Below the pieces are notes generated by a model. It ran no database searches. It worked only from the letters and a program-made list of their open reading frames with translations, and had not been told where the DNA came from. From Escherichia coli (GTDB lineage Bacteria > Pseudomonadota > Gammaproteobacteria > Enterobacterales > Enterobacteriaceae), in assembly GCF_041248615.1 (NCBI RefSeq), contig NZ_CP158426.1: DNA of 64,000 nucleotides; one strand, given 5' to 3'. A program made the translations under genes and the position numbers. Every line of letters begins with the position of its first letter. The stretch's first letter is position 1. Of the stretch, positions 20,343-37,798 are shown piece by piece.

Positions 20343-21098
20343 TTAAATTTGCATTGAGGTAGCGATATCGAGACGTTGCAGTTCGTCAATCGTGTAGATG
20401 CGGAACACATTCCTGTGGCGGGTTTCCAGTGGGATGTGTTGATGATTCACGATGACGTACTGGATGCTGTCAAACAGCCGTTCAAGACCGAGTTTTTTTT
20501 GCGGGTCTGGCACAATATAAAAAACGTAGATCCAGTCTTTACGCGTTCGGGCCAGTAAATGACTGGCTATGATCGACTGGTAACGGGCTTTGGTTTTCAG
20601 ATGGCGCTCGGTCTCGATGGCGATCACCGTGCCGCTGGGGAGGGCAATTAGCCCGTCCGGGCGGTGACTGACCTGATAACGACTCAGGAAAGTTGTGCGA
20701 TCGCCATGTATCCAGCCGCATGCGCCTTTTTTTTCGAGGATGATCCGCGCCATCTGATTATCAAGGTGATGTTCCAGCGTCCAGCCTGTGAGTTTTGAAG
20801 GCTCAAACCGGGCCGGGAAAATTTCATCATCAGGCTGTATTACGACCGCCAGCCCGTCGTTGGTTATTCCCCACAATGAAATTTTCTTCGTACGTGATAC
20901 CAGGACGTGTTTTTGTATTAACCCCATTCCCTCAACTTTTGAAAGCAGGGAATACAGTGATTTATGATCCCTGAAGCCGAACAGCAGCATCAGTGTTGTA
21001 AAATCACTGTACGTTTCTTCTTTCAGGAAATTCAGCAGTCGTATTATCTTCTCGCGATGTCGGGTCTGGCGCTCGCGGTATGCGGTGATAAGCATCAT
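20343..21098 (-). CDS. Hypothetical mobilization protein, possible MobC-like small relaxase
   Basis: 251-aa ORF 8 nt downstream of coupling-protein gene; function inferred from position only. Confidence 0.35.
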   Translation of the reverse strand: MMLITAYRERQTRHREKIIRLLNFLKEETYSDFTTLMLLFGFRDHKSLYSLLSKVEGMGLIQKHVLVSRTKKISLWGITNDGLAVVIQPDDEIFPARFEPSKLTGWTLEHHLDNQMARIILEKKGACGWIHGDRTTFLSRYQVSHRPDGLIALPSGTVIAIETERHLKTKARYQSIIASHLLARTRKDWIYVFYIVPDPQKKLGLERLFDSIQYVIVNHQHIPLETRHRNVFRIYTIDELQRLDIATSMQI

Positions 21099-21106: not shown

Positions 21107-23032
21107 CTAAAAGTTCAGTAACGAGGGATGATCCTCTTTACCTGCACCTGCACCTGCACCTGCACCTGCACTTGTTGTTGTGTGTTTCTCGTCCGGCTTG
21201 TCAAAAAAGAGATCGGGTTGTGTTGTCGTGATAACTGATGTTGATGACGGTCCGGATGACATTTCTTCCTCGTCAAAATTCAGGGCAATGTTGACTCTTG
21301 CGGCGGTGGCGGCAACAGCGGGCGATACGGCACAGATCGCCAGTTCCCTTTTTTTAACCCTGATGGGAGAAATTAGTGAAGCAGAGGGGAGGGCTTTGGT
21401 GGTGAATATAAAACTGACAAAATCAGGCAGGTTCAGCACCATATTACTGTCGATAAAGAAACGCTCGGCCTGCCTGATGGTGCGTTCACTATCGATAGTC
21501 TCTGTCAGCACCGCATCTGTTTTGGCTTTGCGGACTTCGTCATCGACTAATATGGTGCCTGACATTCTTGCCACCCAGTCAGCGGTATCAGGGTCCATGA
21601 CACGATAAACCAGCTTGAATTTGGCATTCTCCACAACTGCACCCACCACGGCATCGCTTTTCAAATCCGCCGGGCAATCTTTTAAATCGGCAATGGATTG
21701 GTGGTCCATAATAATGTGTACACCTTTATCCCGTGCCGCACCTAAGCCTTCCAGCGCAGGCTTGGATAAATGGTATTTCAGTTCGGAAAGGTAAATAGCA
21801 ATAGGGCGGGGTGTGTGGTTTACCCGATCGCGCCTTTCTGCCAGCTGGTACAGGCGAACCAGCAGCATGCGCTGAGCGGTAATAATTTTGCTGTTGCGCA
21901 TCGAGCCAATCACATAGCAGCAACCACCGTTATCAAATATTGTATTGAGGGAAAATCCTGCCGGTGCATTGATGGCATTGAGTAAGGCCAGCTCCTCAAT
22001 TTTCCCGAAAAAGGCTTTTATCTTATCAGCGATACTTTGGACGTATTCCCCGTTATACACATCCCGAATGGTTGAGGTCGTATTACGGGCGACAAATTGT
22101 GCAGCTATTCGGGCTGCTTTGCGATCGTCAATGCGATAAAAGTCAGACTCTTGTCCTTTCTCTGCCAGACTGAAACCCGCGACAAAAAGTTCTTCCAGTT
22201 CATCAGCGGTGATATCGTTAATCAGGTTTAGCTGGTATGCCTGTTTCCTCAGGTCAATTAGGGCAAAGGATTTCCCTGCATCCTCGCAGGCTTTCCGGTA
22301 AAGGTGTGGGGCCCACTCATCATCTTTGGGGTCCATAACAAATACGCCTTCACCGGCCAAAATACTCTGATAAAGTAATATCCCGGTGGCCACCCCTTTA
22401 CCGGCCCCCGTGGTCCCGATGATATCGGCATGTTGTTTTTGCCAGTCTTTTAACGGCAGGTACATCGGCTGTTTCATTCTGTTCATGCCGATAAAAATAC
22501 CTTTACTCAGGTTAATATAATCCTCCGGGTTATAGTGCAATGTTTCCGGTAGCAGCGATTTCACCGTTCGGACATCAGTACGTAATTCCCTTTCCAGAGT
22601 GGTTTTTCTGACGAACCGACTTTTTACTTTATCGAGTTCAGGTGTTAACACCCTGCGCAGAAGAATATGGAAAACAAAACCGGCTGCGGTAGAGGTAATC
22701 AGTATCAGCCAGGAGAGGACAGTATTGCTGGTGGCTATCTTTATTCGGTATATCCATTGAAATAATTCGTTCACCACGGGCGCTATTGTGCCAAACAAAA
22801 AGCACAGTATGGAAAAAACTATCACCAGCTTTTTCCATAAAGGGGCTTTGAGTCGTTCATCGCTTTTCATCGACGCGAAGAATGGCATGGTCAGCCCTGA
22901 GAATAGCGCCAAAATAGGTTGATGCTGGTGCATAAAAACGAGCAGTCCCAGCATGCCGTCCACTATCGGTGATAGTGAAACGATCAGCTTATTTAACACC
23001 ATAATGCTTCCTTTATCGGCCATTCGCCCCAC
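21107..23032 (-). CDS. Type IV coupling protein (VirD4/TraD/MobB-like)
   Basis: N-terminal TM helices; Walker A GTTGAGKGVATG; 641 aa; C-terminal Gly-Ala repeat. Confidence 0.85.
   Translation of the reverse strand: MGRMADKGSIMVLNKLIVSLSPIVDGMLGLLVFMHQHQPILALFSGLTMPFFASMKSDERLKAPLWKKLVIVFSILCFLFGTIAPVVNELFQWIYRIKIATSNTVLSWLILITSTAAGFVFHILLRRVLTPELDKVKSRFVRKTTLERELRTDVRTVKSLLPETLHYNPEDYINLSKGIFIGMNRMKQPMYLPLKDWQKQHADIIGTTGAGKGVATGILLYQSILAGEGVFVMDPKDDEWAPHLYRKACEDAGKSFALIDLRKQAYQLNLINDITADELEELFVAGFSLAEKGQESDFYRIDDRKAARIAAQFVARNTTSTIRDVYNGEYVQSIADKIKAFFGKIEELALLNAINAPAGFSLNTIFDNGGCCYVIGSMRNSKIITAQRMLLVRLYQLAERRDRVNHTPRPIAIYLSELKYHLSKPALEGLGAARDKGVHIIMDHQSIADLKDCPADLKSDAVVGAVVENAKFKLVYRVMDPDTADWVARMSGTILVDDEVRKAKTDAVLTETIDSERTIRQAERFFIDSNMVLNLPDFVSFIFTTKALPSASLISPIRVKKRELAICAVSPAVAATAARVNIALNFDEEEMSSGPSSTSVITTTQPDLFFDKPDEKHTTTSAGAGAGAGAGKEDHPSLLNF
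21137..21166. repeat. Hexanucleotide tandem repeat (CACCTG)x5 within coupling protein C-terminus
   Basis: Read directly; encodes (Ala-Gly)n on the minus strand; in-frame repeat. Confidence 0.85.
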
Positions 23033-23270
23033 GACATCGCCCCCTCAATTCGCCCCACGGTGTTGGGCGAAAAGCTGGGGTGAAAGCAGGGGCAAACAGA
23101 GGTGGCTGCGGTGCAGCCATGTGCCGGTAGATAGACTTTCCGGCCCGAAACGACGTGCACCAGTTCATGCGGGCTGGACGCCCTTATTGCCTGGCGCATG
23201 GGGGTAATGGCGTGGCTGTACGCCGCGCCAAAACCCCCAGGGTCAACGGCGGCACACCGTCGCCCGCTAC

Positions 23271-23633
23271 GCGCGACCAACCCCTTTAAGACGCGCGTTT
23301 CGCCTGTTTTTTTCTCGCAAGCTCCAAAAAACGGGAACGCTGCTTTAAAGGGGTTGGTCGCGCCTGATTGGTAATATCCCCGCTGGGGCGGGAAATATTA
23401 CCTGGCTTGACGGTGTGCGGGGCAAGCCCCCCACAAAAAACGGCACGTGGGCGTGCCTTTTTGCTCGCTGGGGCGGCAAAATTTTTGCGGCTCCCCCGGC
23501 CTGCTTAATTCGCTGTGGGCGAATGTGCGCAGATGGATGCGGTACCTGAAAATTAACAATTTCTGCGAAATTGAATTTTCTGTCCGCGTTCCACTGGCTT
23601 ATTTCACGGCTTAACAATTTCTCCGAAATTGAA
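23271..23633. other. Candidate oriT / relaxosome assembly region with inverted and direct repeats
   Basis: 20-bp near-perfect inverted repeat (23271-23290 vs 23344-23363); two copies of TTAACAATTTCNCGAAATTGAA (23553-23575, 23611-23633), each containing dyad CAATTTC-N3-GAAATTG; lies between coupling protein gene and T4SS genes. Confidence 0.5.
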
Positions 23634-23709
23634 GCCAGAAATTAGCCAGCCTCAACCCCGCCGTCTGTCAGTCTGTGGCGCTGTGAGGCATAGTGTAATG
23701 TCCGGTGGT

Positions 23710-24015
23710 TCACACCTGTTCGCGATATATTTCAGCCCGGCATTCCTGTTCAGCCTTTAATACCTCCCGGTAGGTTTCATCATCGACTTTCGTTCCCTGA
23801 TTTTCGGCGTATCGTCTGAGTTTGTCAGCATCCTGTTCATTAAGACGCGAAAGATGATGTCGCAATAAACTGATCAGTCTACTTTCATAGATCTCATAGT
23901 AAAGGCCGCATCCCTGATTCGCTTCCTCAGAGAACTTTCTGTACACGGCTCCGACCGATATTCTGTCATGATGCATTGAGTGGATGTTGGAAATAAAAAG
24001 GTTTTCTTTATCCAT
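23710..24015 (-). CDS. Hypothetical protein, 101 aa
   Basis: ORF only; charged and helical in character. Confidence 0.45.
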   Translation of the reverse strand: MDKENLFISNIHSMHHDRISVGAVYRKFSEEANQGCGLYYEIYESRLISLLRHHLSRLNEQDADKLRRYAENQGTKVDDETYREVLKAEQECRAEIYREQV

Positions 24016-24063: not shown

Positions 24064-24366
24064 TTATCCTCTGAGCCTACCAAATCTGGACAGGATTTTA
24101 TTCACCGCCTCTGGGTCGGCACTGGCACATTCTCCGAGGAAAGCTTTTCTGGCATTCAGTGTATGACCGGGTAAAAATCCGTGTTTATTCTTTTTGACGA
24201 TATTAAAGAAAGTTTTTTCAGCTGAATGGCACTCACTCCCTCCACTGTTTCCGGTCGCTTTCCCGTACATACAAAGCACGACTTCGCATGGGTCAGAGGC
24301 GAAGCAATAAACAGGGAGCACAATGGCAATGCACAGCATTACCGTCGCAATGGAGGCGTATTTCAT
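24064..24366 (-). CDS. Small secreted Cys-containing protein (T4SS-associated)
   Basis: N-terminal signal-peptide-like hydrophobic segment MKYASIATVMLCIAIVLPVYCFA. Confidence 0.5.
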   Translation of the reverse strand: MKYASIATVMLCIAIVLPVYCFASDPCEVVLCMYGKATGNSGGSECHSAEKTFFNIVKKNKHGFLPGHTLNARKAFLGECASADPEAVNKILSRFGRLRG

Positions 24367-24410: not shown

Positions 24411-24806
24411 TTAATGTGAAAAATAAATATAGGTATCGCTACACGTCAGGCACTGAGTTGCAGGTTGATATTCAATAACACCATTTGCGCCATGCTGGCG
24501 AAGCCAGCTTGTTGCAGTAAAGAATGCTGTGCCTGATGGTGCAGCAACAACAATACGCGTCGAATGCGCAACTGCGTAAAATACGTCGGGGGTCCAAAGT
24601 GTCTCGTTAAACTGCGTTGAGTGAACGGACAATAACCACTTCCCATTAACGATTGGGGAAGGATTAATAACGGGGGTGTCATTCCATTGCGATAAATTGA
24701 TATTCACTGACTCGCCCGATTTATCCCATTCAACAGATACCGGTGGGGGTGGTGACGAACAGCCGGTAAGCACCATTAAAAATAACAGTATATTGATGGT
24801 TTTCAT
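24411..24806 (-). CDS. Lipoprotein, 131 aa
   Basis: Signal peptide with lipobox LTGCSS; start overlaps virB11 stop by 1 nt. Confidence 0.6.
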   Translation of the reverse strand: MKTINILLFLMVLTGCSSPPPPVSVEWDKSGESVNINLSQWNDTPVINPSPIVNGKWLLSVHSTQFNETLWTPDVFYAVAHSTRIVVAAPSGTAFFTATSWLRQHGANGVIEYQPATQCLTCSDTYIYFSH

Positions 24807-25849
24807 TATGCTTTCATCTCCTCGAAGAAGGCATTACGGTGCAGTGGCCGGAAATAGATATCATTCATTCGGCGCACGTTGCCGTCTAAATCAATACTGA
24901 CAATAACATCCAGACTGTCCAGCACTTTGCGTAACATAAACGTGTAGGGCAGCCGGGCGCATTGTGGGTTTTCATAACAGCGAGTAATAAAACCGTCTAC
25001 CGCTTCTATTGCTGAACCCGCATGCAGGGAAGTCATACTGCCTTCATGGCCGGAGCCGGTTATTTTGAGAAAATCCCAGGCTTCACCACCGCGCACTTCG
25101 GTTAACAATATACGGTCGGGGTTCATGCGATAATTCCAGCGCAGAAGACTGGCTGGCGTCACAATCGAGCCTTTTTCATCTGCTGATTCGGACGGATAGA
25201 AGAGGTGGACATAGTTTTTATGAACAAAAAAGGTGATTTCCGGATTATCTTCAATGGTCGTAATACGCAAATGGCGAGGAATAAAACCAATCAGCATCTT
25301 CATGTAGGTTGTTTTCCCGGTACCGGTTTCCCCGGCCACCGCGATAGTTTTACCGTACTCCACGCACTTCTCCATAAAGCGCGGGATATCTTTGGCGGTA
25401 TACAGGCTCAACAATTCCTGATCGTGCGTCTGGGTGGTTTCTGAGCCCGTCACCCTGTTATAAAAACCGGCGTCGATATAGCTCTGGTGGGGAATTTGTA
25501 CCTGTGACGGCTTTCGGATAGTAATGGAGACGGTGTTGCGCTCACAGGCCGGAGGGACAATAACCTGACAACGTTCACCGGATTCCAGCGTGGCTGACAG
25601 CCCCGGTTTGATATCTTCAATATTGTCGCAGTGATGCTTTGCCAGGCATCTGGCGAAGTTGTAGCACCCCTCATAATCCAGCGAAACACTGTGCAGCTCC
25701 CAGATACCATTAATTTTGGTAAATAGCTCGCCCGGGCGGTTGACGGCGATTTCTGTTAGTCCAGGATGAGCAATAAAATCGCCAAAAAATCGCTGTGTAT
25801 AGCGATCGAGAGAGATGTTTTTCATGTGATATCCTTGTATCGGATACAT
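24806..25849 (-). CDS. virB11: VirB11-family T4SS ATPase
   Basis: Walker A VAGETGTGKTT; size and position at end of virB operon. Confidence 0.9.
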   Translation of the reverse strand: MYPIQGYHMKNISLDRYTQRFFGDFIAHPGLTEIAVNRPGELFTKINGIWELHSVSLDYEGCYNFARCLAKHHCDNIEDIKPGLSATLESGERCQVIVPPACERNTVSITIRKPSQVQIPHQSYIDAGFYNRVTGSETTQTHDQELLSLYTAKDIPRFMEKCVEYGKTIAVAGETGTGKTTYMKMLIGFIPRHLRITTIEDNPEITFFVHKNYVHLFYPSESADEKGSIVTPASLLRWNYRMNPDRILLTEVRGGEAWDFLKITGSGHEGSMTSLHAGSAIEAVDGFITRCYENPQCARLPYTFMLRKVLDSLDVIVSIDLDGNVRRMNDIYFRPLHRNAFFEEMKA

Positions 25850-25862
25850 TTGTGGAGGGAGT

Positions 25863-26870
25863 ATGTCGAAGACGAAAGTACTGTTCGCTTATTGCCATGA
25901 ACTCGGGCGCTGTTTGTCCATTGATGAAGCGCGAATGGAATTTTTTTCCAGAAAGCCGGAAGAAAGGAAGCGGTTCACTTTTTCATGTAGCGATCGCAAC
26001 TGTGATGTCACCATTAGCGGTGTTAACTATCACGTCAAAGCTGAAGATGGTGAGAAATTCAAGGCTGCGCACTTCCGTTCACCTCATCCTCACAAGTTCG
26101 GATGTGAATGGCTCGAATTCACCGAGGATGCGGATCAGGACCGGCGTCCAGACGAGTCAGAGGCTGATTTCACAGAACGAAAAGCAAAGCAAAAGCTGAC
26201 GGACTATATCAACTGCTTTGACCCTTCAATAGATGATCCTGATGGCGAACCATCCGATCCCGTGAAGCTTGTTACGCCTGTTCACACAAGAAAAACTGTC
26301 GGGGATGATGATAAAACGGGTACAAATGAAGAGCCCCGCTGGAGTCGCTACACGCGAACCAACCAGCTTCAGCGACTTATCGACACATGGCAGGAAGCGA
26401 AAGAAACGCTGCCTCAGGATGAGTTCCGGGCGTTGAGACTCAGGATCATGCACCATGATCAGGTCTATCTACATGAATATATAACGCATATACAGCGTGG
26501 ATTGGCTAATCCGTATTCGGGCGTCATCTATGGTGGTGGGACCCTAATGCATCGGTATGGTCGGGGTTTTCTGATTAATTTCTTTGATAAACATGAGGGG
26601 AAGCCTGTTCGCCTGTATGTCAGTAAAGATCTGATGGCGAAAGGACGGTTTGGTCATTATATCGATGAGATTCTGGACACTAAAAACGTCAGATATTTCC
26701 GTATATTTTTACTCAATCCGGTTGTTTCCGAACGGGAAAACAGCACAGGAAAAAGCGTTATCAACCTTGAAATATCAAAGCTGCGTCAACTGGCTATTTA
26801 CTACGAACTGAACTCCAGCAGAGAAGATGAATCTTCATCGGTGGAGACGGAGGGGGAAAGTCCGGCGTAG
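25863..26870 (+). CDS. Hypothetical protein, 335 aa, Cys/His-rich N-terminus, antisense to T4SS operon
   Basis: Long ORF on opposite strand between virB11 and virB10; N-terminal Cys/His cluster (CHELGRC, CSDRNC, HPHKFGC); acidic C-terminus. Confidence 0.5.
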   Translation: MSKTKVLFAYCHELGRCLSIDEARMEFFSRKPEERKRFTFSCSDRNCDVTISGVNYHVKAEDGEKFKAAHFRSPHPHKFGCEWLEFTEDADQDRRPDESEADFTERKAKQKLTDYINCFDPSIDDPDGEPSDPVKLVTPVHTRKTVGDDDKTGTNEEPRWSRYTRTNQLQRLIDTWQEAKETLPQDEFRALRLRIMHHDQVYLHEYITHIQRGLANPYSGVIYGGGTLMHRYGRGFLINFFDKHEGKPVRLYVSKDLMAKGRFGHYIDEILDTKNVRYFRIFLLNPVVSERENSTGKSVINLEISKLRQLAIYYELNSSREDESSSVETEGESPA

Positions 26871-27187
26871 CGGGCTAATGTTGTCACAAGAATGAGTATA
26901 TCGGTGACGTCAGGCAGCGATATCTGCTTATGTGCCAGCCGGATATCGTCCGGGGAAAAAGGCGGTGCATCCAAAGGGCCTTCACTGATGGTGATACAGA
27001 ACGGTTGCTCTTCTCCTGAGTCAATACTGAGTTCTATCAATGCGCCCCCGGCACGATAGCATGTCATGACTATTCTTCTGATTCCGGTAAGGTGTGACAG
27101 TAAGTCGTTGACGACAGCGTTGCTGAAATCGTCCCTTACGATGACGTCTGTCGCCGTAACACCAAACAAAAACTTTCGATTACTCAC
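26801..27187 (-). CDS. Hypothetical protein, 128 aa, coupled to virB10
   Basis: Start overlaps virB10 stop by 8 nt; 3' end overlaps the convergent 335-aa ORF by 70 nt, so one of the two calls may be wrong. Confidence 0.35.
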   Translation of the reverse strand: MSNRKFLFGVTATDVIVRDDFSNAVVNDLLSHLTGIRRIVMTCYRAGGALIELSIDSGEEQPFCITISEGPLDAPPFSPDDIRLAHKQISLPDVTDILILVTTLARYAGLSPSVSTDEDSSSLLEFSS

Positions 27188-28430
27188 TCTTCATCCTCAG
27201 CGTGTAGATGCCTGAAAAATCAATATCCTGCCCTGTGACCAGGTTGATGATTTCACCCTGATTTTTGTAGAGCGTCGGTGGGATATTAATGCTGTTTTCC
27301 AGCGTGGTACGTGCCATATCCGCCATAGCCTGACGGCTGTTTTCTGTATAGTCGGTATTCCGATCTTTCTGACCGGCGCTGTTGGATGCCCATGCCCCAA
27401 TATCAGGGATCATACCGACCAGTAATGCACCTCCAAATCGCTCCCTGAAATGCGAGTCTATCCAGCCATCAACGCCAGCCTCGCCCAGTTCTCCGGCAGC
27501 ATTCGTATCGACCAGCGGAATATCAAGGAAAGGGGGCTGGCGGGTACGCAGTTTCGTGATGATGATGAATGCGCGTCCCTGTCCATGCGTCATTCCTGTT
27601 TCTGCACCAGTCTGGTACATCCCCGTGGCGGTGGTCCCTTTTTCTATCAGCTTTGTATTACCGCTGGCGCTCCAGATGTCTTCGGCGATCGTGCAGCGGA
27701 TTTTTCCAGCCCGATCTGAGACAAAACGGTAATCCAGTGAGCAGGGAATAGCGGTATTTTCCGGCACGTACAGATCGGGATTATAAGGAATTCGCCGGAC
27801 CGCTGTCGGGGACTGTTCCGGCTGTGGCGACGAGGTGTTTAGCGGCTGACCGGTATCAGAATATTGTGTCTCTGACGGCTGTCTGGCTGAGGATGCCTGC
27901 GTCATTTCCTGATACCGGGTCCGTACCGGATTTCGTACCGCTGAACCTGAACCCTCCCGGCGCACCAGAAAACGGGCTTTATCTAAGTCGGGCAGAGCCT
28001 CCGATCCGTTGGGTGTCGTACTACCAGGGTTGTTGTCCGCCGGTTCTGGTGTTTTCGCGTCGATATAGTGCGTACCCAGATCGGTACGCTGTCGAGAATC
28101 GGTCCGATCTGTCGGGGCCACAGTTTCCTGAGGCTTTTCTTTACCTGGCTGCCAAAGAAGATTGTGGTATATCCAGTTACCCCCCCACGCCAGTGCAATC
28201 AGGGCAACGGCAGCGAATGCCAGAAAAGCGGTGGCTTTCCCCTGCTGGCGCTTTTTCAGTTTATTGACAGCCGGCTGTATTGGATCGTTATTGTCATCAT
28301 CCTGCCAGGTGTGAAGCACAGCTTCACGCTTTGCGCGGGCCTCGCGCTCAAGCGCAGCAATATCATCATCCTTCTGTGTCGGACAGGACCTGGATTCATC
28401 TGGCACAGGATGCAGATGTTCGTCATTCAT
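27180..28430 (-). CDS. virB10: VirB10/TrbI-family T4SS protein
   Basis: N-terminal TM anchor, Pro-rich linker, conserved C-terminal domain; position in operon. Confidence 0.85.
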   Translation of the reverse strand: MNDEHLHPVPDESRSCPTQKDDDIAALEREARAKREAVLHTWQDDDNNDPIQPAVNKLKKRQQGKATAFLAFAAVALIALAWGGNWIYHNLLWQPGKEKPQETVAPTDRTDSRQRTDLGTHYIDAKTPEPADNNPGSTTPNGSEALPDLDKARFLVRREGSGSAVRNPVRTRYQEMTQASSARQPSETQYSDTGQPLNTSSPQPEQSPTAVRRIPYNPDLYVPENTAIPCSLDYRFVSDRAGKIRCTIAEDIWSASGNTKLIEKGTTATGMYQTGAETGMTHGQGRAFIIITKLRTRQPPFLDIPLVDTNAAGELGEAGVDGWIDSHFRERFGGALLVGMIPDIGAWASNSAGQKDRNTDYTENSRQAMADMARTTLENSINIPPTLYKNQGEIINLVTGQDIDFSGIYTLRMKSE

Positions 28431-28449
28431 GTGTACAGTTCCTCAGCTG

Positions 28450-29349
28450 TTAATTGGTTGCGGTTTTTACCACTCGCTCAACTTGCGGGGAGACTGTGGC
28501 ACCATCTGCGACCTGAACCCTGCCGAAACCACGATTTTCCAGGCCGACCACAGCGCCACCGGAACGGAGGACCAGACGGGGGGTAACTTCCTGAATAACC
28601 AGTACGGTGAAGTTGCCTTTCCTGCGGACACTGCTGTTAACCACATGCTCCTGGCCGTTTAGCTCTTTTGTCAAAGAGGGAATGGATTTGGCTGGGGAGA
28701 AGCCCACGAACGTAAAGCGACCATCGTCATAGGCGAAGTCCGGAACGATACGTGTGCTATTGCTCCCCGGATATTTGAGATAGTCCCAGTTTCGTGGCGT
28801 CTGCGCGGCGTTAAGAGCCTGCTGGATATCGGCCTGCTGTTGTTTCTGCTCCCGTTCCCGCGCTTTGGTTGTGACTTCACGGCCCGATTTTTCGTGTGCT
28901 TCATCGGGATAGCGATAACTCACCTGAAAAGCAGGCTGCTGCGATGATTTTTCATCGATGACGTTTAGCTCGACGTTATACAGCCGCCGAGTGGTAACGA
29001 TTAGCATGTTGGTATGCCAGTCGTGACTGTTGGGAGGAATGACCACCTGCGCTGTATTACCGTCCACTCCGGGGGCACCCTGAATCAGGGCTACCGGGCG
29101 GATACTGACCCGGTTTGCGTCTGTTGTGGCTTCCCATGCGTCCTCAAAACCTGGTTTAGCACTGATAACCGCTTCGTCATTGTCAAAGATGAGCGTGGTT
29201 ACGAAACCGGGTCGGGTATTGACGACAGTGACGTTAAACGGGTTATAGACAACCTGCTGGAGACGGGCGTCGTAGCGGCTTGCTTGTGGTATTGCAGCAC
29301 CCCAGGCTATACCGCACATCGCCAGTGCGAAAAGGATGATAATTTTCAT
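28450..29349 (-). CDS. virB9: VirB9/TrbG-family T4SS protein
   Basis: Signal peptide; size and synteny; 1-nt overlap with virB8. Confidence 0.85.
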   Translation of the reverse strand: MKIIILFALAMCGIAWGAAIPQASRYDARLQQVVYNPFNVTVVNTRPGFVTTLIFDNDEAVISAKPGFEDAWEATTDANRVSIRPVALIQGAPGVDGNTAQVVIPPNSHDWHTNMLIVTTRRLYNVELNVIDEKSSQQPAFQVSYRYPDEAHEKSGREVTTKAREREQKQQQADIQQALNAAQTPRNWDYLKYPGSNSTRIVPDFAYDDGRFTFVGFSPAKSIPSLTKELNGQEHVVNSSVRRKGNFTVLVIQEVTPRLVLRSGGAVVGLENRGFGRVQVADGATVSPQVERVVKTATN

Positions 29350-30032
29350 TATTCAACTCCTCTGATTTCACGATCTGCCTGCCAACTTGTCACCGTAAAA
29401 CCGAACGGGTTAACTTCCCGCTCTGTATCGCTCATTTCCTTACTTGGGTCGGAGTGGAATGTCAGGTGGGCATCCCAGTATTCTGTACGCGTACTGCTAT
29501 CAGCGAGGCGGCGGATAGTTTTTTTGTAACGGAGGGTGGCGACTTTATCGGGGGCAGTGCCTTCGGTGATCTGATTAGACAGGATGTCGATATGTACGGT
29601 GTGGGCCTCATTCTGGTACACCTTATCCGGGGCGTCTTTTCCTGAATAAAGTGCCAGATAATCATCATTAACCTGAGGGCTGTTATAGACCTGTACCGTT
29701 GAATAATCGTCCTGTAGGGCAGGGTAAATGTAACGTTCACGCACTCTGACGTAACTTGAGGTCATCGCCTTCTGATAAGCTTCTTCCGCTGTCAGACTCG
29801 TTTGTGACGCTCGGGTGACGTGTTCCAACCGTCCGGTATGATTATCAACAGCATACAGCTCAATAACTGTCTGTTTCAGCGGTAATATCAGCACCACAGT
29901 GGTGAGTGCCAGTATGGCAATGAGTAAGCCCGCGCCACCAACCATAAATCCCGCCTTCGTGGCGCGTTTGTCCCGCTCAATCATTTTCTGCTCAAAGGTG
30001 CGGGAATCAGCAATGATTGACTGTTCACTCAT
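29349..30032 (-). CDS. virB8: VirB8-family T4SS protein
   Basis: Single N-terminal TM segment; size and synteny. Confidence 0.8.
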   Translation of the reverse strand: MSEQSIIADSRTFEQKMIERDKRATKAGFMVGGAGLLIAILALTTVVLILPLKQTVIELYAVDNHTGRLEHVTRASQTSLTAEEAYQKAMTSSYVRVRERYIYPALQDDYSTVQVYNSPQVNDDYLALYSGKDAPDKVYQNEAHTVHIDILSNQITEGTAPDKVATLRYKKTIRRLADSSTRTEYWDAHLTFHSDPSKEMSDTEREVNPFGFTVTSWQADREIRGVE

Positions 30033-30162
30033 GATTGTTTAACTCCGCCATCATCTGAGGCGTGTTTACCGGGATGCCATTCCCACTAAAGGCCAGGGGA
30101 TGGGGTGACTGTGCACAGCCGTAAAGCGCGCACAGTAAAATCAGCGCAATCAAGCGTTTCAT
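30025..30162 (-). CDS. virB7: VirB7-like small lipoprotein, 45 aa (not in ORF track)
   Basis: Hand-translated MKRLIALILLCALYGCAQSPHPLAFSGNGIPVNTPQMMAELNNHE; lipobox LYGC; stop overlaps virB8 start. Confidence 0.5.
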   Translation of the reverse strand: MKRLIALILLCALYGCAQSPHPLAFSGNGIPVNTPQMMAELNNHE

Positions 30163-30245
30163 GGGATGTTTCCTCAGTGGGTTGGATAGAGGGTAGTGTT
30201 AGCGCCGGGGGGATTGACGGAAATAGTATGCAAGGGATGACAAGT

Positions 30246-31310
30246 TTAACGATGAAATTTCTGAACGGTTGTTTCTCTTGATTTTGCCAGCCGTCGGGCC
30301 TCGTTCCTGGCGATCATTTGCTCAATGGCATACTTACGTGCCTGAGCAGCTCTGTATCCCGGGCCGCTGCCGGGTTTATCTGTACTGGCATCTCTCCATC
30401 CCTGAAGATTGTCCTGAATTGCGCGGTTTGTCTGCTTCCCGGCTCCTGCGGCTAATTTCCCTGCACCAAACGCCGCTGCGCCTATACCCACGGCGGACAG
30501 TCCCTGCATGGAGACAGTCGCTCCCGCCCCGGCTAGTGCTCCGGCCAGTTTTGCGGAAAGGTATACCATTATTGCCGCGCAGACCCCGGCGAGACAGACC
30601 TGAGCGCCTAGCTCCACAATATTAGATTGTGCAGATATTTGTGTGGCAATATCTAAGCGGGAGTTTAAATAATTAACGACCACTCGTAGCGACAATGCAG
30701 AAAACAGAACCGTTAATATGGCTGCGAAAATATTTTGCAGCCAGTTGTTAAACATGGGACGTAAAAAGCCATACATGAGACAAAAGATGAAAACGGGGGC
30801 TGTGATGCTGAGCAGCAAAACCATGACCTCTGCGATCATTGCAACAAAGGCTGTAATAGTCATTAAAACGAATATCCCAAGCCACACATAAAATTGAGCT
30901 GTGATGCCCTCGTCTTTTATGTACGTTGAATTATCCATGTCGTGTAACGTTTTGCCTAATACCTTCGCTTTATCCCATAAGCTATCCAGTAGTTGCCATA
31001 TATTATCGTTGCCGGAAAAGCCGTCTTTTAAGCCATTGATAGCGTCAATGACCCCGTCGAGATAACCGCTGACATTGGCCACAAAGGACAGGATGATGGC
31101 CATTCTTATGATGTCCCACATGACGTCCTCCATGGGTGCGGACAACTTACCTGCCAGGCTCTGGTATCCACGCCACATGATATAAAGTGTCGCTGACGTT
31201 GCCGCCAGTCCCAGCATCATGGCGGAGTATGACATCATCAGTCCCTTTGTTGCGTCGGTGACTCCCCCTATCAGGTGTTTTTCAACACCGATAAATACAC
31301 CACCAGGCAT
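30246..31310 (-). CDS. virB6: VirB6/TrbL-family polytopic membrane protein
   Basis: Multiple hydrophobic helices; Gly/Ala-rich C-terminal region; synteny. Confidence 0.8.
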   Translation of the reverse strand: MPGGVFIGVEKHLIGGVTDATKGLMMSYSAMMLGLAATSATLYIMWRGYQSLAGKLSAPMEDVMWDIIRMAIILSFVANVSGYLDGVIDAINGLKDGFSGNDNIWQLLDSLWDKAKVLGKTLHDMDNSTYIKDEGITAQFYVWLGIFVLMTITAFVAMIAEVMVLLLSITAPVFIFCLMYGFLRPMFNNWLQNIFAAILTVLFSALSLRVVVNYLNSRLDIATQISAQSNIVELGAQVCLAGVCAAIMVYLSAKLAGALAGAGATVSMQGLSAVGIGAAAFGAGKLAAGAGKQTNRAIQDNLQGWRDASTDKPGSGPGYRAAQARKYAIEQMIARNEARRLAKSRETTVQKFHR

Positions 31311-31320
31311 ATTAACCTCA

Positions 31321-31548
31321 CTATGAATTCAGGTTGGGAGTGGGGGCATTTAACTGTTGAATCTGAAAATGAGCTTCATTGGCATTTTTACAGTTTTCAG
31401 AGGCATCGCCGGTTTTCAGGCATTTTTCATATACTGTTTTCAGCTCATCGGGATGATCTTTGTACCACTGGGTAGTTTTGGTTTCGTCTCTGCAGCCGCA
31501 AATGATGAGGAATAAAATGGACAGGAACGAAAGGGTTAATAAACGCAT
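31321..31548 (-). CDS. Small lipoprotein, possible entry-exclusion protein
   Basis: MRLLTLSFLSILFLIICGC signal/lipobox; located between virB5 and virB6; internal start of track ORF 31321..31608. Confidence 0.5.
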   Translation of the reverse strand: MRLLTLSFLSILFLIICGCRDETKTTQWYKDHPDELKTVYEKCLKTGDASENCKNANEAHFQIQQLNAPTPNLNS

Positions 31549-31559
31549 GTGAAACTCCT

Positions 31560-32267
31560 TTAACGGTTTAAATCGGAGGTTGGTGCAGTTAACTGCTGCT
31601 GGTTCCACTGTTTGAGACGCTCATCCTCCAGCACTTTCCCGCGTTTTTCTGCCGCCTTCACACTCATTTCCCATTGATCAGTGAGCGTGTTCAGCATCAC
31701 TGATTTCAACTGAATACTGTTGGCAAGGTCCAGCGACTCCTTTGAGTCTTTAGAGAGTGCAATCCGGTTTGAAAGATTATTGATCTCACCCAATGTTTGG
31801 CTGACCTGATCCTGGATCTCGTCAGTCTGCTCAAACTGAATTGCCTTATTGATAACCTGTTGTTTGCAGATATCGGCATAGCTTCCGGACTGCGCCGCGT
31901 TGCACGTATCGAAAACCCGGTACTTTGCGTATAGCGCATCGAACTGCCCGGCGATGCCACCAGAAAGTAGCAGGTCGTTGAGTGTCTGGCCCGGCTTACG
32001 CAGTTTTTCCAGATCTGATTTAAGACTCTTCGCCTGATCAACGAAATCAACAATATTCCGTACACCGGTGGCCGTTGCTAACTGGTCTTTATATGCCTGA
32101 ATTTGGCTCTCATAATGCTGCGCTGTTTGTATCCAGCGTTGTGCCTCTTTCAGCCATTCGAGCTCACGTAGTGGGTCAGCATCCACCAGAACAGGGATAC
32201 CTGCGTGTGCCATCGGGCTGATGATCACACACGCAATAATTAATGCATGAAAACGCCGTTTCATCAT
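31560..32267 (-). CDS. virB5: VirB5/TrbJ-family minor pilus protein
   Basis: Signal peptide MKRRFHALIIACVIISPMAHA; coiled-coil content; synteny; start chosen downstream of virB4 stop. Confidence 0.7.
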   Translation of the reverse strand: MMKRRFHALIIACVIISPMAHAGIPVLVDADPLRELEWLKEAQRWIQTAQHYESQIQAYKDQLATATGVRNIVDFVDQAKSLKSDLEKLRKPGQTLNDLLLSGGIAGQFDALYAKYRVFDTCNAAQSGSYADICKQQVINKAIQFEQTDEIQDQVSQTLGEINNLSNRIALSKDSKESLDLANSIQLKSVMLNTLTDQWEMSVKAAEKRGKVLEDERLKQWNQQQLTAPTSDLNR

Positions 32268-32284
32268 GAATCTCCTGTGGATTT

Positions 32285-35029
32285 TCAGAGTGCCTGAGCC
32301 AGGTAAGTATCCAGCCATTCATGGGGCTGCATTCCTTCCCGGTAGAGAGAGTCGAAGATTTCCAGGTTGTCGGCGCTGCCGCTCATGACTTTTGTGTACC
32401 TGCCGATCCCGGAAAGATCGAGCGTCACACGTGCAGCAAAACGCTTTATGTCGCCACGTCTAAATTGATTTTTTACCACTACGTACTGACGGGCCTGAGG
32501 ATCCAGGGCTTTCACGACGTCGAACACTTCCGGCTCAAACTTCATTCCGTCGACATAGTGTTCCCTGTCAGCACTGGGGTTGGCTGCCAGGATCTGCGTG
32601 CCGCACTGCTCAATCACGGCAGGCGCAATTTCATCCCTGATGATCTCCGCCGGGGACTGTGTTCCAACAACCAGCATCCCGTTTAGCTTGCGGATAGTTT
32701 TCAGTCGGTTATAGGCGAAATCCTTAAAAACCGGATCCCGTAGCCATTTCCAGAACTCATCCATGAAGATAACCAGTCGACGTCCGTCGAGTAGGCTGGT
32801 AATGCGGTACAGCAGATAAAAGGAGATCGGTGCGCAGATATTCGTATCGTCAAGAAACTCTGTGCCGTCAATGCCAAAGTTATCGCAGCGACTGATATCG
32901 AAGGTGTCTGATGCGTTATCAAACACCCAGCCAAACTCGCCACCCTGCGCCCACTGTGACAGGCGAATACTCAGGCCATTCTCCTGGGCTTCTCGGGTCG
33001 CAGGCTCCGGAAGATTCTCCAGTAAACGGGTGATCCCATGAATACGGTACTGTGGTTCATTACCGATCACCGCCAGTATGGCATCATTTAGACGTCGTTC
33101 ATTGCGGGGCGTGATGGTCGCACCGTTACGCGTACACAGCAGTTTCATCAGCTGACTGATAAAACTGATATTGCGTTTCGTGGGCGATAGCGAAAATGGG
33201 TTCCACCCGGTGGGCTCTCCATGTGTAATACGGTAATAACGGCCTTGCAATGCCCGGATATTCATTTCAGCGCCACGATCCTTATCCAGATAAACGGTTG
33301 TCAGTCGTTTGGTTTTTGCGTCGGGAGAAAAACTCTCCGTACGGCTATATTTCTGCTGCATGTTTTCCAGAAACGTCATGAGCATGGTTTTACCCGAACC
33401 GTTGGTACCGAGAATGCAGGTACTGGCTGGATTCTTCTCGTTGAATTCATCCTTATCCGCCAGCGTATTGTGAAGGTTCAGATAGTATCCATCCCCTGAT
33501 GGGGCACGCAGTAAGGCCATCGCATCCCCCCAGGGCGCATTATCGCGCTTGCCGGGATAGAAATTGTGTAGCGAAGCCAGCTCGACAAAATTCTGACTGC
33601 TCAGCTCACCCTTGCGGGGCCGCAAATGATAATTGCCAGGCAGTTGCGCCATATACCCGGCTGAAAGAGAAAGCGCGGCGGGAACCGATATAATGCCGAG
33701 GTTGTTCAGGGCATTGCTGATTTCGCTGGTATCGGCTACCAGACTATCCAGCGTCTGGGAAAACACCATGATGGAAAAATGGTGTTTTCCATACGCAATT
33801 TTTCCCGATGTCAGCAGGTCAAGCGCCACATCCAGATCCAGCCGCTGAGACACCGCATCATCATCTGAACTCATTAACAGACGTCGGGTGCGTTTGATGG
33901 CCTTCCGGGCTTCTTCCCGTGACATGCAGGTGTAGGACTGTGTGATGACATAATCACAGGGGGCATAAAGCAGAGAATCCATCATTCCAGTTGCTGTTTC
34001 TTCAGGGAACTCTTTAACTTCCAGACCCCGGAAATACTGGGTGCCGCCGGTATGGTTTATCTGTCCAGACTCCCCGGAGAAAAACAGCGCCGCCGATCCC
34101 ATGACGGAATATGCAGGAGCACGGGTGACGCGGATCCTGCGCCATTGGTGCGTCAAGAGATACTCGTAAAAGGATAACTGGGAGGAGAATACCGCCTGTT
34201 CTTCGCTGAAAGTACCAAGAGAGTGTGCGGCGTAGCGTGACAGAGCGGTATCGAGGGTACCTTTAATTTCCAGCATCCCCTGCAACACACCGTCAAGCTC
34301 TTTCAGTTTCTGGCCGTCTTTCATACGCCGGTGTCCGGCTTTTTCCAGACTGGCAAAAGGGCGGTAGCAGGCAGTCAGGAACAAGCGGTTACGGCGAAAC
34401 GGGTTAGCCTCCAGCGAGGCATAATACAGACGGCTGACTTCATCAGCGTAAGGGTTGCCGGATACCTTATGTAGCGAATCGGTAAATGGCTCCCTTACGT
34501 TATGGATATAGAAGGTGACCGGCATCCCCTCGAAAGAGCGGATAATTCCGTGCAACTGGTTACGGTCAATATTGAGCGTTTCTTCTGATTCACAATCGAA
34601 CGGAGTGCCCGTCAGTTCCCAGGTACAGTAGAGGTCACTATTGGGTGAGCGGACGACATGTTGATGAATATGCGATGAATACGGAATGTATTTCCTGAGC
34701 GTGGCACTCTGATTCAATTTCATGACGTTGAGAAACTCCGTGATATCAACAGCATCATGCTCAATGGGCATAAATGCTGTTGCGCCAAATAGACGGTTTG
34801 CCGCAGGTTTTCCTCTTGCCCTGAGCCAGACGGCTATCAGGCTGAACCGCATGGGTTCATTCTTGGTAAGCGATTTCATCAGCAGAAATTCAATCGGGAG
34901 TAGGGCGAGGAAAGCGACGGAGGTCCAGACAGCAATGATGATGGTGATACCCGTGACAGCCAGTAGAGGCACCATCGGCACTCCCCATAGTGCCGCCGGA
35001 CGTCTCATTGCCTTAAGCAGCTTTGCCAT
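32285..35029 (-). CDS. virB4: VirB3-VirB4 fusion T4SS ATPase
   Basis: 914 aa; N-terminal TM VirB3-like segment; large ATPase body; synteny. Confidence 0.9.
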   Translation of the reverse strand: MAKLLKAMRRPAALWGVPMVPLLAVTGITIIIAVWTSVAFLALLPIEFLLMKSLTKNEPMRFSLIAVWLRARGKPAANRLFGATAFMPIEHDAVDITEFLNVMKLNQSATLRKYIPYSSHIHQHVVRSPNSDLYCTWELTGTPFDCESEETLNIDRNQLHGIIRSFEGMPVTFYIHNVREPFTDSLHKVSGNPYADEVSRLYYASLEANPFRRNRLFLTACYRPFASLEKAGHRRMKDGQKLKELDGVLQGMLEIKGTLDTALSRYAAHSLGTFSEEQAVFSSQLSFYEYLLTHQWRRIRVTRAPAYSVMGSAALFFSGESGQINHTGGTQYFRGLEVKEFPEETATGMMDSLLYAPCDYVITQSYTCMSREEARKAIKRTRRLLMSSDDDAVSQRLDLDVALDLLTSGKIAYGKHHFSIMVFSQTLDSLVADTSEISNALNNLGIISVPAALSLSAGYMAQLPGNYHLRPRKGELSSQNFVELASLHNFYPGKRDNAPWGDAMALLRAPSGDGYYLNLHNTLADKDEFNEKNPASTCILGTNGSGKTMLMTFLENMQQKYSRTESFSPDAKTKRLTTVYLDKDRGAEMNIRALQGRYYRITHGEPTGWNPFSLSPTKRNISFISQLMKLLCTRNGATITPRNERRLNDAILAVIGNEPQYRIHGITRLLENLPEPATREAQENGLSIRLSQWAQGGEFGWVFDNASDTFDISRCDNFGIDGTEFLDDTNICAPISFYLLYRITSLLDGRRLVIFMDEFWKWLRDPVFKDFAYNRLKTIRKLNGMLVVGTQSPAEIIRDEIAPAVIEQCGTQILAANPSADREHYVDGMKFEPEVFDVVKALDPQARQYVVVKNQFRRGDIKRFAARVTLDLSGIGRYTKVMSGSADNLEIFDSLYREGMQPHEWLDTYLAQAL

Positions 35030-35039
35030 AGATAACCTC

Positions 35040-35333
35040 TCAGCTCATCAGCAGTGCGCCGATTTCACTGCCTCCACCAATCAGGATGCCGCCAATGATG
35101 ATGTAGGCGCACTGGGACAGGCTTTCGCCTTTCCAGAGTGTCTTGTAACCTACCCAGATCACGGCCACGGTAATGGTGATGGCCGCCAGGCCATTAAGGC
35201 CGGTGGCGACTTTTTCCATCACGGTATTTGCGCGTTGAAAGCCATCGGCAAAAACCGGAGGTACAGAACAAACGATGAGTGCAAATGCGGAAACATGACT
35301 GAAAGCGGCCTTAAGTTTGCAGCAAAGTGTCAT
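35040..35333 (-). CDS. virB2: VirB2-family pilin
   Basis: 97 aa with two hydrophobic segments; position after virB1. Confidence 0.7.
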   Translation of the reverse strand: MTLCCKLKAAFSHVSAFALIVCSVPPVFADGFQRANTVMEKVATGLNGLAAITITVAVIWVGYKTLWKGESLSQCAYIIIGGILIGGGSEIGALLMS

Positions 35334-36088
35334 TATTCTTTCTCCTCACGGGGTGACAGGGAGAGGCTCCGGCGCAATGACGGCGTAGAGATCTTTTCTA
35401 TGGCAATTTTCTTCTGGCGGAATTTTGAGGGGACGCCACGAACCACGCCCTTCGGCCAGATCACGCAGGGACGTAACTGGTCACCTGCAGGCGTAGGCTT
35501 CAGGAACGGCGGGGGTGTCAATTTATCCTCGTGGGTTCCGGGTACGGCATAGTGGGGAGCAGCAGCGTAACCGATTCGTTGCACATAGCTGGTTCCGGAA
35601 AAAGCCGCTTCCGGCTGTTCTCCGGTACGGAAATTGCCGGAGTAGTAGCAACTCAGTGCTCTTTTCAGCGAGCCGCCGCGTCGGTAACAGTCGTTGAGGA
35701 TGTGTTCGAAAACAGACAAATTGGTACAGGGATCAAGCAGCTCAGAGGCTGTCACACCGTAATGATGGAAATTGGTGCTGGTAATTTGCATCAGCCCCAC
35801 AGAATAACGGCGGCTCTGCGCCATAAGGCGACCTATGATTCGCTCGGCTCTTTCCCGGCTGGTGGGCTGATGAGAAATGATTTTATTGTGACCGAAGGTG
35901 CCTGAGCCCTTTGGGATAATTTCGGCGATCGCATAAGGGTTAAAATTGGACTCCACCCTTACGACGTCGAGTGCTGTGGACGGATGAATGCTGGTGGCAC
36001 ACTGCATGGCCACCGCCAGAAAGGCAGATGTGGAAAGCATAGTAGCCTCGGGAATGCGGGCAGCGTACATAGCCAAAGAACCATGCAT
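35333..36088 (-). CDS. virB1: VirB1-family lytic transglycosylase (SLT domain)
   Basis: SLT motifs VESNFNPYA and GLMQIT; first gene of operon; exact start uncertain. Confidence 0.8.
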   Translation of the reverse strand: MHGSLAMYAARIPEATMLSTSAFLAVAMQCATSIHPSTALDVVRVESNFNPYAIAEIIPKGSGTFGHNKIISHQPTSRERAERIIGRLMAQSRRYSVGLMQITSTNFHHYGVTASELLDPCTNLSVFEHILNDCYRRGGSLKRALSCYYSGNFRTGEQPEAAFSGTSYVQRIGYAAAPHYAVPGTHEDKLTPPPFLKPTPAGDQLRPCVIWPKGVVRGVPSKFRQKKIAIEKISTPSLRRSLSLSPREEKE

Positions 36089-36677: not shown

Positions 36678-36887
36678 TTAGCGTTTACGTCGTTCAAGCA
36701 TTTCCTGGCATTCTCTACACGTTGTTACTCCTGGCAGAGTGTGCCTCCGCTTTTCAGGAATTGGTCTACCGCAGAACTGACAGTGATACAGGGAAGGTGT
36801 TGCTGCTGGTTTGAAACGGCTTTGTTCAATCATTTCCTCCAGACGTTGCTCATTGAATTCCTGGTCGCGATCAACTTCGTCAGGCAT
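36678..36887 (-). CDS. TraR/DksA-family C4 zinc-finger protein
   Basis: CQFCGRPIPEKRR...CRECQ four-Cys motif; start at internal ATG of track ORF 36678..36944. Confidence 0.6.
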   Translation of the reverse strand: MPDEVDRDQEFNEQRLEEMIEQSRFKPAATPSLYHCQFCGRPIPEKRRHTLPGVTTCRECQEMLERRKR

Positions 36888-36888
36888 A

Positions 36889-37461
36889 TCATGTCCTCCT
36901 GTCTGTCCTTCCCTGCTCGCAAAATGTGATTCGGTTACACACAACAGTGAGTGAGGGGGGATTGGGCTCTGAGGCTAACTCTTCGGTGATCTGCATCATG
37001 ATGTTAATTGCTTCATTAGCATCAGGACTTTTCCCTTTTAACGCCTTCCATCGGCACCATATTGTGGCATCCATGGTTTCATCAGGAAGAGGTGAGCGTC
37101 CATACGGTACAGAGATGCCCTGTAATCTGCGGTTGAAACAGACATCGTTGGAAGTAAGACCAAAATAATGCTTTAGTAAGGCTATAGATCCACCTAACCG
37201 GATCGCCCGATTAATTTGCTGATGATGCTGGGTTTCAGTACGTGCTCTTTCCAGCTGTTTGCGTAAAATGTCATGGTGAATTTTGACTGTAATAAATGAT
37301 GCGGGAGAGTGGCAGATGTTCAATAATACATCAAGTGGTAACTGACTGATTTCGTTTATTTCTTCAAGAGTAAATCCAAGTGTTTCACCATAAGATAAGT
37401 CACCATCCTTCAATGCATAAATTACATCCGTGAGTACGTAATAATTCAGCAAGGGAAACAT
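36889..37461 (-). CDS. Hypothetical protein, 190 aa
   Basis: ORF only; between alpA-like gene and traR-like gene. Confidence 0.45.
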   Translation of the reverse strand: MFPLLNYYVLTDVIYALKDGDLSYGETLGFTLEEINEISQLPLDVLLNICHSPASFITVKIHHDILRKQLERARTETQHHQQINRAIRLGGSIALLKHYFGLTSNDVCFNRRLQGISVPYGRSPLPDETMDATIWCRWKALKGKSPDANEAINIMMQITEELASEPNPPSLTVVCNRITFCEQGRTDRRT

Positions 37462-37478
37462 AAGTTATCTCTCTTATC

Positions 37479-37664
37479 TTAGCGGTTAGCTAATTTACAA
37501 TTAATCCATTCGTCAATCTCCGACTCGAGCCAGGCTACGCTGGCTGGGCCGATTTTTATTGAGAGTGGGAAACGCTTGTCTTTCATATACAGATAGATTT
37601 GTGAGCGTTTAAGACCTGTTTTTTGCTCGACCTGTCTGAGGCGTAATAATTGATGAGATGGCAT
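37479..37664 (-). CDS. alpA: AlpA-family phage/ICE regulatory protein (excisionase-like HTH)
   Basis: 61-aa product with LRLRQVEQKTGLKRSQIYLYMKDKRFP typical of AlpA family. Confidence 0.8.
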   Translation of the reverse strand: MPSHQLLRLRQVEQKTGLKRSQIYLYMKDKRFPLSIKIGPASVAWLESEIDEWINCKLANR

Positions 37665-37798
37665 TTGTTCCTCCAGGGGCTTATGGCATTGCTATCATAA
37701 AGGAACACAGAATGATGTTTAGATAAAGACAGTGAACCCGTATTACGACATTATTCACCCGTAATACGGATCTCAGAGCTATATACACGAAGGATGTA

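Follow-up and report, generated by a model that had tools for sequence, protein, structure and literature searches.

Here we analysed a 64,000-nucleotide stretch of Escherichia coli DNA (contig NZ_CP158426.1, referred to below as the window, with all positions counted from its first letter) that carries a VirB-type type IV secretion system (T4SS) operon on its minus strand. This region is very probably the P-type (VirB-like) mating-pair formation (Mpf) operon of an intact integrative and conjugative element (ICE) with an ICEKp/ICEEc1 backbone. The T4SS and the ICE are ordinary and already annotated in RefSeq, and the sole unexpected feature is an antisense module at the virB10/virB11 junction, which consists of orfB, in line with the operon, and orfA, on the opposite strand. 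ICEs with an ICEKp/HPI-type mobilisation backbone but with cargo different from yersiniabactin circulate both in E. coli and in other Enterobacterales. Of greater use is the finding that a conserved two-gene module sits precisely where two virB genes would be translationally coupled, and that the orfA family is large and unannotated, with members in both transfer regions and defence loci.

A two-gene insert separates virB10 from virB11

Homology to L003, an insert-free ICEEc1-like element of E. coli, breaks exactly at the virB10/virB11 junction. In L003 the two genes overlap by 11 nt. In the window they lie 1,354 nt apart (25826-27179), and the gap houses orfB on the minus strand and orfA on the plus strand. 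The GTG start of orfB overlaps the virB10 stop by 8 nt (GTGAGTAA) and sits at the position of the L003 virB11 ATG. Because orfB occupies the coupling site, its product is most likely synthesised along with the Mpf proteins. The starts of orfA and virB11 are divergent and 37 nt apart, with conserved Shine-Dalgarno sequences on both strands of the spacer. At their 3' ends orfA and orfB converge and overlap by the final 70 nt of orfA. The GC content of the insert is 0.475, similar to that of the flanking genes. An insertion sequence (IS) element in the 1.3-kb gap was also considered and was rejected, since there is no transposase match and both open reading frames (ORFs) represent conserved protein families.

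A terminator scan of the insert returned no terminator-like site. Operon transcripts must therefore cross orfA in antisense to reach virB11, unless virB11 has its own promoter, and an untranslated RNA of ~975 nt antisense to orfA would lie ahead of virB11. With approximately 1 kb of untranslated antisense transcript in this position, expression of virB11-cag12-trbM may be uncoupled from that of the upstream genes or regulated differently.

A sequence-only reading of this region had described a tightly coupled VirB1-VirB11 operon with gaps or overlaps of 1 to 17 nt. That description fails at the virB10/virB11 junction, where the two ORFs were overlooked. From virB1 to virB10, with the EexN gene included, the junction distances are -1, 10, 20, 11, 10, 83, -8, -1, and 19 nt, the gap of 83 nt lying between virB6 and virB7. 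Measured spacing thus extends to 20, 83, and 1,354 nt, the last with a plus-strand gene inside it.

OrfA and OrfB protein families and predicted structures

OrfA has 59 close homologues, at 47-98% identity, in Enterobacterales and Vibrio, and the wider family comprises 385 clusters at 50% identity, nearly uniform in length. OrfB has 33 homologues. In the window strain, RefSeq annotates OrfB as an 88-aa protein from an internal Met (26801-27067), and relatives are annotated with the 128-aa form. The 128-aa, GTG-initiated form is favoured based on both this annotation in relatives and the conservation of the additional N-terminal 40 residues. Neither protein had a match in Pfam, NCBIfam, PADLOC, PHROGs, or PDB sequences. 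A literature search returned nothing on the OrfA protein accession and no description of the window ICE under the strain name NRZ14408.

The N-terminal domain of OrfA is rich in Cys and His, with invariant C11, C42, C47, H70, H77, and C81, and was poorly modelled in structure prediction. It is followed by an acidic linker and then a C-terminal predicted OB fold. OrfA resembles OB-fold single-stranded DNA (ssDNA)-binding proteins, such as bacterial and phage single-stranded DNA-binding proteins (SSBs), RPA70, and the MCM10 internal domain, in predicted fold alone. Unlike these proteins, it has no sequence similarity to them or Pfam SSB match, it carries the additional N-terminal Cys/His domain and acidic linker, and its genomic contexts include defence islands.

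OrfB was modelled well, with a pLDDT of 84. The disordered acidic tail of OrfA is the reverse-strand reading of the structured OrfB C-terminus and is absent from homologues of OrfA encoded without OrfB, and the 3' overlap therefore probably constrains orfB rather than orfA. Although one database label suggested Imm10 for OrfB, none of 18 family members matched any Pfam immunity family at E<=1. Aligned by hhalign, OrfB and the convergent partner of a distant OrfA homologue (L016) share a YR[AT]G motif but show no significant match.

Distribution of orfA and orfB

Besides the window, 11 loci carry the orfA/orfB pair between virB10 and virB11: the E. coli ICE L002, a Salmonella locus (L012), and nine loci from a scan of species-representative genomes. 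The latter come from Citrobacter, Pectobacterium, Erwinia, Pantoea, Symbiopectobacterium, Winslowiella, Kosakonia, and one Enterobacteriaceae isolate. Among loci with the pair at this junction, VirB10 identity falls as low as 61%.

The pair also occurs outside the junction, with orfB always co-oriented with the transfer genes and a 3' overlap of 64-79 nt. It follows virB10 of a different T4SS (L014), follows virB11-cag12-trbM on Klebsiella aerogenes and Serratia plasmids, and is part of the transfer region in Vibrio plasmids of the pVA1 type, whose conjugation has been shown experimentally (PMC9602635).

We found orfA without orfB in at least six loci that represent four kinds of context. On a Providencia plasmid it stands beside ParE and HicAB. 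In Enterobacter and Rahnella islands it comes directly after TerY-P (PADLOC TerY, PP2C, and STK_OB), and the neighbours in these islands include T5orf172, RT/PRTase, AbiGi, Mrr, and type IIG restriction-modification (R-M) genes. For Enterobacter asburiae and Rahnella victoriana (L011 818-5975 and L023 2817-7966), orfA is the fifth gene of a conserved same-strand cluster, in the order TerY, PP2C, STK_OB, a 180-aa ORF, and orfA, followed by T5orf172. This TerY-to-orfA cluster may represent a longer form of the TerY-P defence system. In a type I R-M operon (L031 1778-6397), the gene for a distant OrfA homologue of 358 aa separates hsdS from hsdR, with a 4-nt overlap. A position between hsdS and hsdR is typical of R-M-linked defence genes such as PrrC.

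Possible roles of the module

Our preferred reading, which we hold tentatively, is that OrfA is a nucleic-acid-binding defence or exclusion protein and OrfB its operon-coupled partner or antidote, with transcriptional interference across virB11. OrfA would then be a defence- or exclusion-type protein that probably binds ssDNA. OrfB, expressed with the transfer operon, would counteract or partner it, and the convergent layout would give reciprocal transcriptional interference between orfA and virB11-cag12-trbM. A more specific version is doubtful: the pair may be an undescribed module of conjugation operons in which OrfA is a Zn-binding, OB-fold ssDNA sensor for defence or exclusion and OrfB a coupled antidote, with the antisense layout switching OrfA off and OrfB on when the element makes transfer ssDNA. 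Such a sensor would account for orfA standing alone in defence islands and in a type I R-M operon. Should the module connect conjugation with defence or exclusion, or hold back VirB11 expression, it would add a new regulatory or conflict layer to a clinically relevant ICE family.

Several observations weigh against a defence or exclusion role with interference across virB11. Promoter scans gave nothing above chance for virB11 or orfA. At the sequence level, Pfam, NCBIfam, PADLOC, PHROG, and PDB-sequence searches gave no link from OrfA to SSBs or to any defence family, and fold comparison of the OrfB model returned no informative structural neighbour. The label “Immunity protein 10” for OrfB comes from a single UniRef entry and is not reproduced by Pfam. 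The association of orfA with defence islands comprises three independent contexts only. The insert could also simply impair virB11 expression, via Rho-dependent polarity on the ~975 nt of untranslated RNA.

It is also possible that OrfA is an SSB-like conjugation accessory that coats or protects the transferred strand in the donor or recipient, with OrfB as its chaperone or adaptor, comparable to VirE2/VirE1. The predicted OB fold of OrfA is most similar to ssDNA binders, the module recurs within transfer regions near topoisomerase III, Toprim, and H-NS genes, and OrfA has an acidic C-terminal tail, as SSBs do. However, this tail is missing from the homologues that stand alone and is the reverse-strand reading of the OrfB C-terminus, so it may be incidental. 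Such a role is also a poor fit with the antisense orientation of orfA, which does not favour co-expression with the transfer operon, and with the presence of orfA in defence islands and in a type I R-M operon where both orfB and a T4SS are lacking. Close relatives, moreover, transfer without the module, as ICEKp1 is reported to be self-transmissible.

We consider it unlikely that the pair is a selfish addiction cassette of the toxin-antitoxin (TA) type hitch-hiking in transfer regions. The cassette is compact, consists of two genes with a conserved overlap, and is found on many plasmids, once beside ParE and HicAB, and one depositor label names OrfB an immunity protein. But if OrfA were an unguarded toxin, its presence alone in at least six loci of four context kinds would be lethal; a convergent overlap is not the usual TA layout, and neither protein matches a TA or immunity-family hidden Markov model (HMM).

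The transfer operon

Genes were called from an ORF listing together with Pfam and NCBIfam scans of the window proteins, and their lengths were compared with those of two relatives (Table 1). Homologues of VirB1-VirB6 and VirB8-VirB11 lie in one cluster, each above its Pfam gathering cut-off. The T4SS Pfam matches range from E 1e-12 to 1e-55, and all are on the minus strand in canonical order. There are no internal stops in any VirB ORF, and lengths match those of the two relatives, with no truncation. The intact VirB-family genes that the sequence-only reading had placed at 24806-36088, in this order and on this strand, are therefore confirmed, and the two ends coincide exactly with the outermost ORF limits. 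The small lipoprotein genes it had mentioned are also present, as EexN, the 45-aa VirB7-like ORF, and Cag12 each have a lipobox.

The gene count required correction. VirB3 is fused to VirB4 in one 914-aa ORF, which contains the Walker A motif GTNGSGKT, so ten ORFs rather than eleven genes account for the eleven functions. VirB7 had been counted among the recognisable genes, but the 45-aa ORF has no significant HMM match (the best, LvhB7, has E=0.023 and 14 bits against a cut-off of 70) and was assigned by position, size, and lipobox alone.

Table 1 Features of the transfer region and of the integration end of the element, in window coordinates
Feature	Position	Strand	Basis and remarks
tRNA-Asn	49856..49931	-	ARAGORN; 161 bp from integrase
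P4-like tyrosine integrase	48423..49694	-	Pfam Arm-DNA-bind_3, Phage_int_M, and Phage_integrase
Upstream regulatory and excision genes	36678..37664	-	Pfam; TraR/DksA zinc finger 36678-36887, DUF2857 36889-37461, AlpA-type Xis 37479-37664
VirB1 lytic transglycosylase	35333..36040	-	Pfam SLT E=1.5e-13; RefSeq start 36040; longest ORF reaches 36088
VirB2 pilin	35040..35333	-	Pfam TrbC/VirB2 E=3e-19
VirB3-VirB4 fusion	32285..35029	-	914 aa; Pfam VirB3 at residues 3-80 and CagE_TrbE_VirB at 271-472 of the same ORF
VirB5 minor pilin/adhesin	31560..32264	-	Pfam T4SS (PF07996) E=1.8e-37
EexN-family entry-exclusion lipoprotein	31321..31548	-	NCBIfam Eex_IncN E=2.6e-21; lipobox ICGC
VirB6 inner-membrane channel protein	30246..31310	-	Pfam TrbL E=1.2e-45
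VirB7-like lipoprotein (ORF9 of pMET1)	30025..30162	-	45 aa; position, size, lipobox LYGC
VirB8	29349..30032	-	Pfam VirB8 E=2e-55
VirB9	28450..29349	-	Pfam CagX E=1.3e-43
VirB10	27180..28430	-	Pfam TrbI E=2.3e-41
OrfB	26801..27187	-	128 aa; conserved; GTG start
OrfA	25863..26870	+	335 aa; antisense to operon
VirB11 ATPase	24806..25825	-	Pfam T2SSE E=1.4e-20; Walker A GETGTGKT; conserved start and Shine-Dalgarno site
Cag12-family lipoprotein	24411..24809	-	Pfam Cag12 E=5.7e-19; lipobox LTGC
TrbM/KikA/MpfK-family protein	24064..24366	-	Pfam TrbM E=2.8e-6; RefSeq name
Conserved 101-aa protein	23710..24015	-	“dopa decarboxylase remnant” of pCRY; syntenic in L002, L003, and L030
oriT region	23003..23709		707 bp, non-coding; perfect 19-bp inverted repeat 23271-23289/23345-23363
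MobB-type type IV coupling protein	21107..23002	-	Pfam TrwB_AAD_bind, T4SS-DNA_transf, and TraG-D_C
MobC relaxase (CloDF13-type, MOB_C)	20343..21095	-	NCBIfam MobC_subf E=6.7e-109
IS3-family insertion	18515..19743	+	RefSeq annotation; intergenic, downstream of mobC

A chromosomal ICE without the yersiniabactin locus

The window is 100% identical to the chromosome of E. coli NRZ14408 (NZ_LT599825.1, ~2,083,672-2,147,671), and the left flank was read there. A 17-bp att direct repeat (TTGGCTCCTCTGACTGG) at 49855-49871 covers the 3' end of the tRNA-Asn gene, and a second perfect copy lies ~1.9 kb left of the window start, just past yeeJ (NZ_LT599825.1 2081785-2081801). The two repeats are 51.7 kb apart, where chance would be expected to place none, and they delimit the element at ~51.7 kb. 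An att junction, which had been implied by the sequence-only reading, is thus present with perfect repeats at both ends. The insertion site is probably the tRNA-Asn gene asnT.

We assigned the ~51.7-kb ICE by its sequence to the backbone family of pCRY, pMET1, HPI-ECOR31 (ICEEc1), and ICEKp1. The best plasmid matches to the operon are pMET1 (NC_010726) and pCRY, at ~77-78% nucleotide identity. Within the family, pCRY, HPI-ECOR31, and ICEKp1 share a layout with a VirB3-4-like fusion and a 45-aa ORF9 as the VirB7 equivalent, and in the pMET1-type family oriT, mobB, and mobC are arranged as in CloDF13 (PMC2262945). ICEKp is defined by a P4-like int, 17-bp repeats, the 29-kb yersiniabactin (ybt) locus between int and xis, and a xis-virB-oriT-mobBC segment; excision and transfer were shown to need xis, int, virB1, mobB, and oriT, and ICEKp1 was reported to be self-transmissible (PMC6202445). 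In the window we found a P4-like int at tRNA-Asn, 17-bp repeats, xis, a T4SS, oriT, and mobBC. The int-xis interval (37665-48422, ~10.7 kb) holds porins, an HTH regulator, ABC and MFS transporters, and AmiA; by annotation and Pfam, the ybt locus is not among its genes. The backbone is thus shared, but by the definition of PMC6202445 the element does not qualify as an ICEKp, and typing schemes based on ybt will miss such elements.

Compared with ICEKp1/ICEKp and HPI-ECOR31 (ICEEc1), the window element has the same P4-like integrase at tRNA-Asn and 17-bp direct repeats, the same xis followed by a virB-type T4SS with fused VirB3-4 and a 45-aa VirB7-like ORF, and the same oriT-mobB-mobC order with ArdC beyond the mobilisation module. 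Its T4SS proteins are 60-88% identical to those of L003. It differs in the ~10.7 kb of other cargo that stands in place of ybt between int and xis, in the 1.35-kb orfA/orfB module, in the absence of a 77-aa gene upstream of virB1, and in the displacement of ArdC by ~7 kb. The gene order from VirB1 to MobC also matches pMET1 of K. pneumoniae and pCRY of Yersinia pestis 91001, although these are plasmids rather than ICEs and lack the insert, with an 11-nt overlap of virB10 and virB11. The Tra system of pKM101/IncN, the archetype of P-type T4SSs, is similar in having an EexN-family lipoprotein between VirB5 and VirB6 and a TrbM/KikA-family protein downstream, whereas VirB3 and VirB4 are fused in the window. 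The DNA-processing (Dtr) functions differ as well, with a MOB_C MobC relaxase in the window element and a MOB_F TraI in pKM101/IncN.

Copies of the same ICE that are 99.8% identical were found in human E. coli isolates from Japan and in E. coli from manure, and a wallaby isolate of E. coli (L030) has one at 95.8% identity. Citrobacter gillenii also carries a copy, with proteins mostly 96-99% identical (range 87-99%). These copies are indirect evidence of recent mobility. A chromosomally integrated, self-transmissible element, as had been proposed from sequence, is plausible, and fits with the intact Mpf set, MobB, MobC, oriT, Int/Xis, the att repeats, and the near-identical copies elsewhere. 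By analogy with ICEKp1, Int and Xis would excise the element at the 17-bp repeats, MobC would nick oriT, and MobB would couple the relaxosome to the VirB channel, which would export the T-strand. It counts against this account that excision, transfer, and expression alike are read from sequence.

The island could instead be a fixed remnant that retains T4SS genes but does not transfer, as is the case for most E. coli HPI copies, with the orfA/orfB insert and the IS3 as signs of decay. The operon is indeed split by an insertion, the element also has an IS3 and an integrase pseudogene distally, and there is another IS3 pseudogene near the left end. Decay is nonetheless improbable, as every transfer ORF is full-length, both att repeats are perfect, and both Citrobacter and diverse E. 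coli contain near-identical copies. The IS3 is strain-specific and lies between genes, and the orfA/orfB insert is a conserved feature of the lineage (in Salmonella and in eight genera or isolates of the species-representative scan) rather than a lesion. It is highly improbable that the VirB genes encode a virulence T4SS for effector translocation instead of a conjugation apparatus: the Cag12-family lipoprotein would fit, but oriT and the genes for the MobB coupling protein and MobC relaxase lie right beside them, the operon encodes an EexN exclusion protein, and the system sits in an ICE of a family with a documented conjugative role.

Mobilisation region and genes upstream of virB1

The oriT region has a mean column identity of 91% to L002 and L003, compared to ~77-84% nucleotide identity across the transfer region, and its 19-bp inverted repeat is invariant between the window and these two diverged E. 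coli ICEs. In HPI-ECOR31 and pMET1, oriT lies upstream of mobB with nic sites within IR2, and two nic sites in an inverted repeat have been reported for the oriT of this family (PMC2262945). The coupling protein contains a variant Walker A motif, GTTGAGKG, which is kept in L002 and L003. The protein ends (window 21107-21200) in a low-complexity (AG)5 run and is 12 residues longer than in these two relatives.

Upstream of the operon, a 77-aa gene between traR and virB1 is conserved in L002 (17773-18006) and L003 (16458-16691). This gene is absent from the corresponding interval of the window (36041-36677), and L030 has no annotated gene between traR and virB1. An Rfam scan of the transfer region gave no known RNA.

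Secondary insertions, distal cargo, and neighbouring islands

The IS3 downstream of mobC was taken as strain-specific because none is annotated at this site in the 95.8% copy L030 and because matches to the 99.8% copies fall into two segments that leave ~6% of the query uncovered. ArdC directly adjoins mobC in relatives, and in the window (region 12413-20342) it is displaced by ~7 kb. This block contains the IS3, hchA, a frameshifted integrase fragment (13517-13918), and a low-GC pair of GT32/GH16 glycosyl-enzyme genes. The arrangement suggests that the ~7-kb block is a secondary insertion into the ICE.

At the distal end, a cargo block of low GC content (0.32-0.40; window 357-6380) encodes a ComEC/Rec2-like protein, a 1,045-aa AAA/SMC-like ATPase, and an ABC-three-component (ABC-3C) system protein with its middle component, and is therefore probably a defence system. 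Other E. coli carry the block at 90% identity outside the present ICE lineage.

To the left of the window (L010 1-12500, record 2055000-2067500), two further tRNA-Asn genes carry the same 17-bp att. It also adjoins a second island, which is degraded and contains frameshifted integrases together with an RHS element. With att copies at several tRNA-Asn genes and a second island present, the tRNA-Asn cluster is a multi-island hotspot in this strain.

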